Notes under the pieces: model-generated
What the model was told of the DNA's origin: nothing
The model's database searches: none
The model's input: the letters and a program-made list of their open reading frames with translations, nothing else
Assembly: GCA_964016885.1 (NCBI GenBank)
Contig: OZ024748.1
Location: forward strand, 50,778,001 to 50,842,000
DNA length: 64,000 nucleotides
Reading direction: 5' to 3'
From: Eledone cirrhosa
Lineage: Eukaryota
Shown: piece after piece, positions 21,268 through 21,361 of the stretch
How the letters are laid out: each line of letters opens with the position of its first letter
How positions within the stretch are numbered: the first letter of the stretch is position 1
Translations under genes and position numbers: made by a program

Positions 21268-21361
21268 ACCCCTTGAGAAGCTCGGCTATTTAAATACCAG
21301 GATAAATTTTCATTTAGTCCAGAATTAGCCGTCGAAACGGCTTGAGCTCAGCCGTCGGGGT
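21268..21361 (+). ncRNA. Type I hammerhead, U3:A8 core, intact; predicted cleavage after GUC at 21356
   Basis: acccc-TTGAGAA-gctcggcta...tagccgtc-GAAA-cggct(tgagctc)agccg-TC-ggggt. Confidence 0.82.

Follow-up and report, generated by a model that had tools for sequence, protein, structure and literature searches.

The stretch of Eledone cirrhosa DNA analysed here (64,000 nucleotides; hereafter the window) contains, at positions 21268-21361 of its plus strand, a real and well-formed hammerhead motif, which we regard as a predicted ribozyme. The motif is of type I, with three helices around the core and the open ends in stem I, and it lies at the 3′ end (pLTR) of an element that we assign to the Hydra clade of PLEs, present here as a solo insertion. 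Its parts, in hammerhead position numbering, are as follows:

21268..21361 (+): type I hammerhead with a U3:A8 core
21269..21272 (+): 5′ strand of stem I, 4 bp with 21357-21360 (pair probability 0.91-0.95), extendable via a bulge to about 21262/21373
21273..21279 (+): core positions 3-9, TTGAGAA, with U3 at 21273, N7 at 21277 and A8 at 21278
21280..21333 (+): stem-loop II, 54 nt, made up of the G10.1-C11.1 pair, a 2x1 internal loop, a 6-bp stem and an inner hairpin
21334..21337 (+): core positions G12-A15.1, GAAA
21337..21355 (+): helix III, 5-6 bp; the loop contains a palindromic hexamer (21344-21349)
21356..21357 (+): predicted cleavage site, 3′ of C17 (21356), placed from the layout

The copy has U4, G5 and A6, A9, G12, A13 and A14, the A15.1-U16.1 pair and an H residue at position 17, and its Watson-Crick 3:8 pair is U:A. 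It sits at the 3′ end of a repeat, with a (TA)n tract 12 nt further on. A descriptor with a U3:A8 core matched once in the 64-kb window, whereas 60 dinucleotide-shuffled versions gave 0.05 matches on average and never more than one; descriptors with U3:G8, G3:C8 or A3:U8 cores each gave no match in the window. The Rfam hammerhead models left the region of the motif unmatched at E values up to 10, and no hammerhead was among the best 150 of 381 Rfam matches in the window. Bearing in mind that Rfam also missed a canonical-core motif at 19139, we consider it insensitive for motifs of this kind. In the aligned copies of the family, 89.9% of cells are paired, compared with 27-55% in slid controls, the structure being derived from the same sequences; the z-scores obtained for the fold are weak, from -0.79 to -1.72.

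BLAST and a covariance model together gave eight copies of the family in the window, and the covariance model built from these eight recovered them alone in the window. The 5′ core is kept in four copies; the other four, which the original prediction did not include (15500-15583 +, 20025-20074 -, 61373-61430 - and 61436-61494 +), retain the 3′ half alone. The copies belong to these features (two-strand features are marked +/-):

1..168 (-): inverted, 5′-truncated pLTR arm, with a U3:A8 core at 40-34 and a disrupted stem I; its 3′ half falls beyond the window edge
1816..1910 (+): copy of the hammerhead, U3:A8 with G5C, lying in an endonuclease relic's 3′ UTR
14958..15052 (-): copy whose core has either a C3-A8 mismatch or a lost U; an arm of an inverted insertion
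15373..15663 (+): partner arm and tail, with the 5′ core and the 5′ half of stem II deleted
20022..20167 (+/-): decayed hammerhead 3′ half (minus strand) fused to a tail (plus strand)
20828..21376 (+/-): whole solo insertion between (TA)n tracts: inverted tail, diverged 3′ UTR and the 21268 hammerhead
61322..61495 (+/-): fold-back of two hammerhead 3′ halves, with a partial tail

Two other hammerhead-like motifs, at 19139 and 39390, were rejected as members of the family, since the eight-copy covariance model did not recover them. The first (19135-19189, plus strand) is a minimal hammerhead with the canonical C3:G8 core and a Hydra-like architecture, from a different PLE family; it lies in a short solo fragment between TA-rich tracts and has a chance expectation of 0.03 per shuffled window. 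The second (39390-39530) is an inverted pair of 3′ halves from a third hammerhead-like family: the 5′ core is lacking, GAAA follows stem II without a gap, and the loop of helix III is similarly palindromic.

The original prediction had rested on four core strings, and all four are present: TTGAGAA at 21273-21279 (+), TTGACAA at 40-34 (-), TTCACAA at 1821-1827 (+) and CTGAGAA at 15048-15042 (-). A8 is constant in all four and position 7 varies (G, G, C, C), as claimed. The proposal that U3:A8 is a family trait stands in part: three of the four cores have it and none has C3:G8, the exception being the 15048 copy, with a C3-A8 mismatch. The 1821 core, in turn, is U3:A8 yet departs from the core consensus at G5 (G5C); G5C and C3-A8 are both expected to inactivate hammerheads. 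An intact core together with intact stems is found in the 21268 copy alone among the family copies. Furthermore, a single inverted insertion contributes both the 34 and the 1821 copy as its arms (121 nt, 89% complementary), for which reason we rejected them as independent evidence; the 5′ cores thus represent three independent insertions, two with U3:A8 and one with C3-A8. In the 15k insertion, five C residues precede the core in both arms, and its template may therefore have had C3-A8. Further along the motif, G12-A15.1, U16.1 and C17 are retained in 5/7 of the copies that have those positions, and the palindromic loop hexamer in 6/7.

The identity of the element can be read from a protein relic near the start of the window:

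172..1132 (+): relic of a Hydra-clade PLE ORF, comprising the end of the RT, a linker and a GIY-YIG endonuclease
700-726 (+): CxCX5C linker, within the relic
802-810 (+): YIG, within the relic
986-997 (+): CxxC, within the relic, before the conserved E

The homologous stretch begins at 172 in frame +1, which it keeps to about 816, and goes on in frame +2 from 815 to 1132; the relic is 5′-truncated at the inverted junction, contains a stop at 193-195 and is frameshifted near 816-826. We therefore reject the single ORF at 313-1132 to which the hammerhead family had been linked. An exhaustive protein search with the relic returned 4370 matches at E values up to 0.001 (best 2e-47), the alignment covering the C-terminal half of homologues of about 700 amino acids (E about 1e-45). 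A word-based protein search with the relic found no match among longer proteins and one among proteins near it in length, and Pfam and NCBIfam scans of the relic assigned no family; its Atlas neighbours carry HTH_animal and GIY-YIG. The CxCX5C linker is present in 89 of 151 retrieved homologues. The RT domain is missing from the window, and the RT motifs were read in homologues alone: among those longer than 600 amino acids (n=30), 26 have DK[TS] and 13 have RW[KR], and 4/5 close homologues have the Hydra-type DKT and RWR motifs in their RT half. Six full-length homologues match nowhere else in the window. Hydra-clade endonucleases are expected to lack CCHH and to have CxxC and CxH motifs flanking conserved E and N residues. 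The CxH site reads C-K-R in the decayed relic; CxH is present in all three full-length homologues examined. Between the GIY and YIG halves, the position that CCHH takes in PLE endonucleases, the relic has no cysteine pair, and it does have the CxxC before the conserved E.

The File S7 consensuses of Hydra elements were compared by eye, and the protein matches carry no family names; the clade assignment depends on diagnostic features. Those given for the Hydra clade in the parts of PMC8557442 used here are insertion into (TA)n, a CxCX5C linker and a CxxC that precedes the conserved E. Because the relic has both protein features and the insertions lie in (TA)n, the sequence supports placing the family in an endonuclease-encoding Hydra-clade PLE. 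The identification of the 21268 motif as a Penelope pLTR hammerhead is upheld, resting on its layout, its position at a repeat 3′ end, the adjoining (TA)n and this clade of element.

The hammerhead at 1816 lies about 680 nt downstream of the stop at the relic's 3′ end, in its 3′ UTR, with no microsatellite between. This 3′ UTR resembles the 15k copy from 1516 onward (score 93.5; highest shuffle score 62.5), and the stretch 1140-1515 occurs just once in the window. For the 21268 copy, the sequence upstream (20880-21130) gave no alignment above shuffles in the 3′ UTR comparison; this copy is a solo end, 20 kb from the endonuclease relic. As to an autonomous lineage, the family does encode an endonuclease, but the 172..1132 relic is a truncated remnant and not an intact RT-endonuclease ORF, so that ‘autonomous’ would describe a master copy outside the window.

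Several insertions end in a distinctive tail:

1926..2003 (+): tail of about 80 nt at one insertion end, followed by (TA)n
15587-15663 (+), 20084-20167 (+), 35903-35972 (+), 20828-20880 (-), 61322-61365 (-): further tails

All six tails end at TA; of the tail-less 3′ ends, three of four run into (TA)n and the fourth into (ATC)n. The 80-nt tail is optional in the family and exceeds the usual PLE tail length of 30-40 nt. Part of it resembles, by eye, the 3′ ends of Hydra-2_Amil, Hydra-2_Ajap and Hydra-1_Crog among the File S7 consensuses compared, and is perhaps a clade-wide endonuclease or priming signal. A perfect 27-bp inverted repeat with a 7-nt spacer (1653-1713) occurs in the 3′ UTR of one copy only and is apparently a local fold-back duplication. 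The window as a whole is rich in AT and in microsatellites and carries decayed pieces of retrotransposons, as an animal genome would. Two of these pieces are non-LTR remnants that match RVT_1 and have no relation to the PLE, at 12473-14595 (+), which directly adjoins the 15k PLE insertion region, and at 31609-33518 (-). There is also about 900 nt of low-complexity trinucleotide repeat (16122-17063) that is open in several frames.

The arms of single insertions differ by 4-10%, from which it follows that the copies are old and have each decayed by roughly 4-5%. At this rate about one of the 24 constrained core sites should have changed; the observed number is two. The copies in the window are best explained as old, 5′-truncated insertions under neutral decay. 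Compared across independent insertions, ribozyme segments show 8-9% differing sites, against 20-30% for the flanks and loop II (Fisher p = 0.0008, 0.002 and 0.02, values that are indicative, the pairs overlapping and the segments having been bounded by us using conserved anchors). Since single-insertion arms already differ by 4-10%, the masters would have barely diverged in the ribozyme once A8 was fixed. U3:A8 is common to subfamilies whose flanks are just 68-75% identical, and the 5′ core segment is itself conserved near the decay level (85-89%). Because the ribozyme is conserved above its flanks across subfamilies, U3:A8 was probably the master state of the family.

Within the family, none of 25 pairs changed on both sides among the eight close copies in the window, and the 3:8 column consists of three UA pairs and one unpaired case. 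We therefore set aside within-family covariation as a line of support: the only change at 3:8 is a mismatch, and covariation is not visible because A8 never varies in the four cores. The window copies thus give no 3/8 covariation of the kind that the original prediction proposed to look for, and its term ‘compensatory’ is true only relative to canonical C3:G8. A separate feature of the flank is a ‘TTGACAA’ heptamer 24-26 nt upstream of distal stem I, present in 5/5 copies that reach there (1784, 15086 on the minus strand, 21238, 77 on the minus strand, and 15475); it sits in otherwise variable sequence and is followed by no matching stem II.

Folding predictions bear on whether an intact core would be used. 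Stems II and III share sequence and so can exchange partners: the 21268 monomer is predicted to form a swapped hairpin that buries GAAA (about 0.75), with hammerhead stems II and III at about 0.24, across 15-37 °C. The active fold is thus not predominant in this monomer. The swapped fold reaches just 1-4% in the 1816 and 14958 copies, where stems II and III predominate. The G10.1-C11.1 pair, isolated by the 2x1 loop, has a probability of 0.02-0.16 and is weak in all three folded copies. When two copies of 21268 are folded together, stem II is restored, GAAA is freed and an intermolecular helix III forms via the palindromic loop, which fits the dimer model described for PLE hammerheads in the portion of PMC4209133 used here. 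Any hairpin whose loop is palindromic should show such a gain, and the 19139 control motif likewise gains energy as a dimer. Given the shared sequence of stems II and III, these models suggest that the 21268 copy, despite its intact core, is probably slow as a monomer.

From the layout, element identity and conservation pattern observed in the window we infer a master state, cleavage, dimer use and a role in transposition, as follows. A (TA)n-inserting Hydra-clade PLE would have carried in its master pLTR a hammerhead whose tertiary 3:8 pair was U:A, not C:G. A transcript through the pLTR would be cut 3′ of C17, either alone via the 5-6 bp helix III or as a dimer joined through the palindromic loop, and cleavage would set free or process element RNA transcribed as tandem or read-through precursors. 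We consider an active master ribozyme of this kind, processing such RNA as monomer or dimer, to be the probable reading, held with some reserve: the 5′ core survives in three independent insertions only, and one of these is C3-A8.

The most serious competitor is that the hammerhead of this family is dead or nearly so, A8 being an inactivating change and the structure being kept for protein binding or RT priming, or merely by recent ancestry. The C3-A8 copy, with its five C residues in both arms, would fit this, as would the weak base of stem II and the predicted misfolding of the 21268 monomer; moreover, the invariant part of the ribozyme is mostly its 3′ half, where the element itself ends. 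Mutating the ribozyme of an anole PLE left insertion in vitro unaffected, so cleavage was dispensable there and conservation might reflect another RNA function (PMC11167929, in the parts drawn on here). Against this, U3 is the exact Watson-Crick partner for A8, in two subfamilies about 30% apart in their flanks; conservation close to the decay level extends to the 5′ core segment; and most copies keep G12-A15.1, U16.1 and C17. We judge a dead family hammerhead unlikely.

Doubtful, to a greater degree, is a more elaborate scheme: that this Hydra-clade family independently fixed an active U3:A8 core and combined it with swapping stems II and III, such that the monomer is off and a tandem-pLTR dimer is on, C3-A8 being an intermediate. 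We would give a very small chance to a regulated switch, in which the sharing of sequence between stems II and III was selected and the monomer is locked inactive, so that a tandem or dimeric transcript alone cuts. The dominance of the swapped hairpin in the 21268 monomer, its removal in the predicted dimer and the retention of the palindromic hexamer in most copies point that way, yet the near absence of the swap from the 1816 and 14958 copies means that it may stem from private decay changes of one copy, and the energy gain of the dimer is shared by the control. Equally improbable is a different register, in which the core is the metazoan PLE consensus minus position 7, G/C stands at position 8 and the 15048 copy becomes C3:G8: that consensus does have an extra base, often A, between A9 and G10.1 (supplement of PMC4209133, in the part used here), and the 15048 core equals it with one base deleted, but the shift needs position 7 to be lost in every copy, sets U3 opposite G8 in the 21268 copy and puts C at position 8 in two copies, whereas the U3:A8 register requires one decay change alone and in several of the published Hydra hammerheads G10.1 follows A9 without a gap (PMC8557442, in the rows considered). 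The U3...A8 register is, on the aligned cores, the most economical. A route of origin by loss of G8, neighbours shifting in, and then C3 to U would be compatible with our preferred reading of an active U3:A8 master.

The core exchange itself has precedents. The original prediction described U3:A8 as functional but uncommon. The first part stands: natural U3-A8 hammerheads are known in several examples and had earlier been shown to be active in vitro (Perreault et al. 2011, PMC3088659); their core exchange is the same as that at 21268, and in the portion of that paper used here they are not tied to PLEs. The rarity was overstated, since the Cercyon PLE hammerheads of Schistosoma mansoni are U3-A8 with about 1,300 hits (Cervera and de la Pena 2014, PMC4209133, in part). 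A rescue test of the 3:8 pair has likewise been published: in the PAc (Poseidon) hammerhead of Anolis, single and double mutants at 3:8 gave partial rescue, although PAc differs from the 21268 motif in having canonical C3:G8, in belonging to the Poseidon clade and in having its ORF start inside the ribozyme (PMC11167929, likewise in part). With both variant and rescue already known, the 21268 motif leaves hammerhead chemistry unchanged. If the family ribozyme is active, it would be a second, independent PLE lineage with a U3:A8 core, and would suggest that catalysis is under selection in PLE hammerheads, despite cleavage being dispensable in one in vitro transposition system; in addition, searches limited to the canonical core miss whole PLE families.

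Our literature search, incomplete in coverage, found no published report of U3:A8 in the Hydra clade and turned up the Schistosoma case alone. What appears modestly new, on the sequence, is U3:A8 in the Hydra clade, along with the length of stem-loop II (54 nt) and a helix III that is both stable and palindromic. In the Hydra-clade table consulted, all 26 rows (25 families) are C3:G8, the table containing canonical motifs only and so being biased against variants (PMC8557442, File S2). The published Hydra hammerheads there have a stem II of about 3-7 bp, loops of 3-10 nt and a helix III of 3-4 bp (Craig et al. 2021, PMC8557442). Like these, the window family is type I, on the sense strand near the 3′ end, with a (TA)n target and a CxCX5C linker; unlike them, it has no C3:G8 among its four cores and has a longer stem II and helix III, and the Hydra-1_Obim ribozyme differs from it in sequence by eye (PMC8557442, in the parts compared). 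With Cercyon, on the other hand, it shares a type I motif in a PLE pLTR with U3-A8 replacing C3-G8, the Cercyon motifs being mostly single and in truncated elements. Yet Cercyon belongs to a different PLE clade and has minimal motifs with almost no helix III, in contrast to the 5-6 bp helix III, the 54-nt stem-loop II and the direct junction of A9 and G10.1, with no extra base between them, at 21268 (PMC4209133, as far as the parts used describe it).
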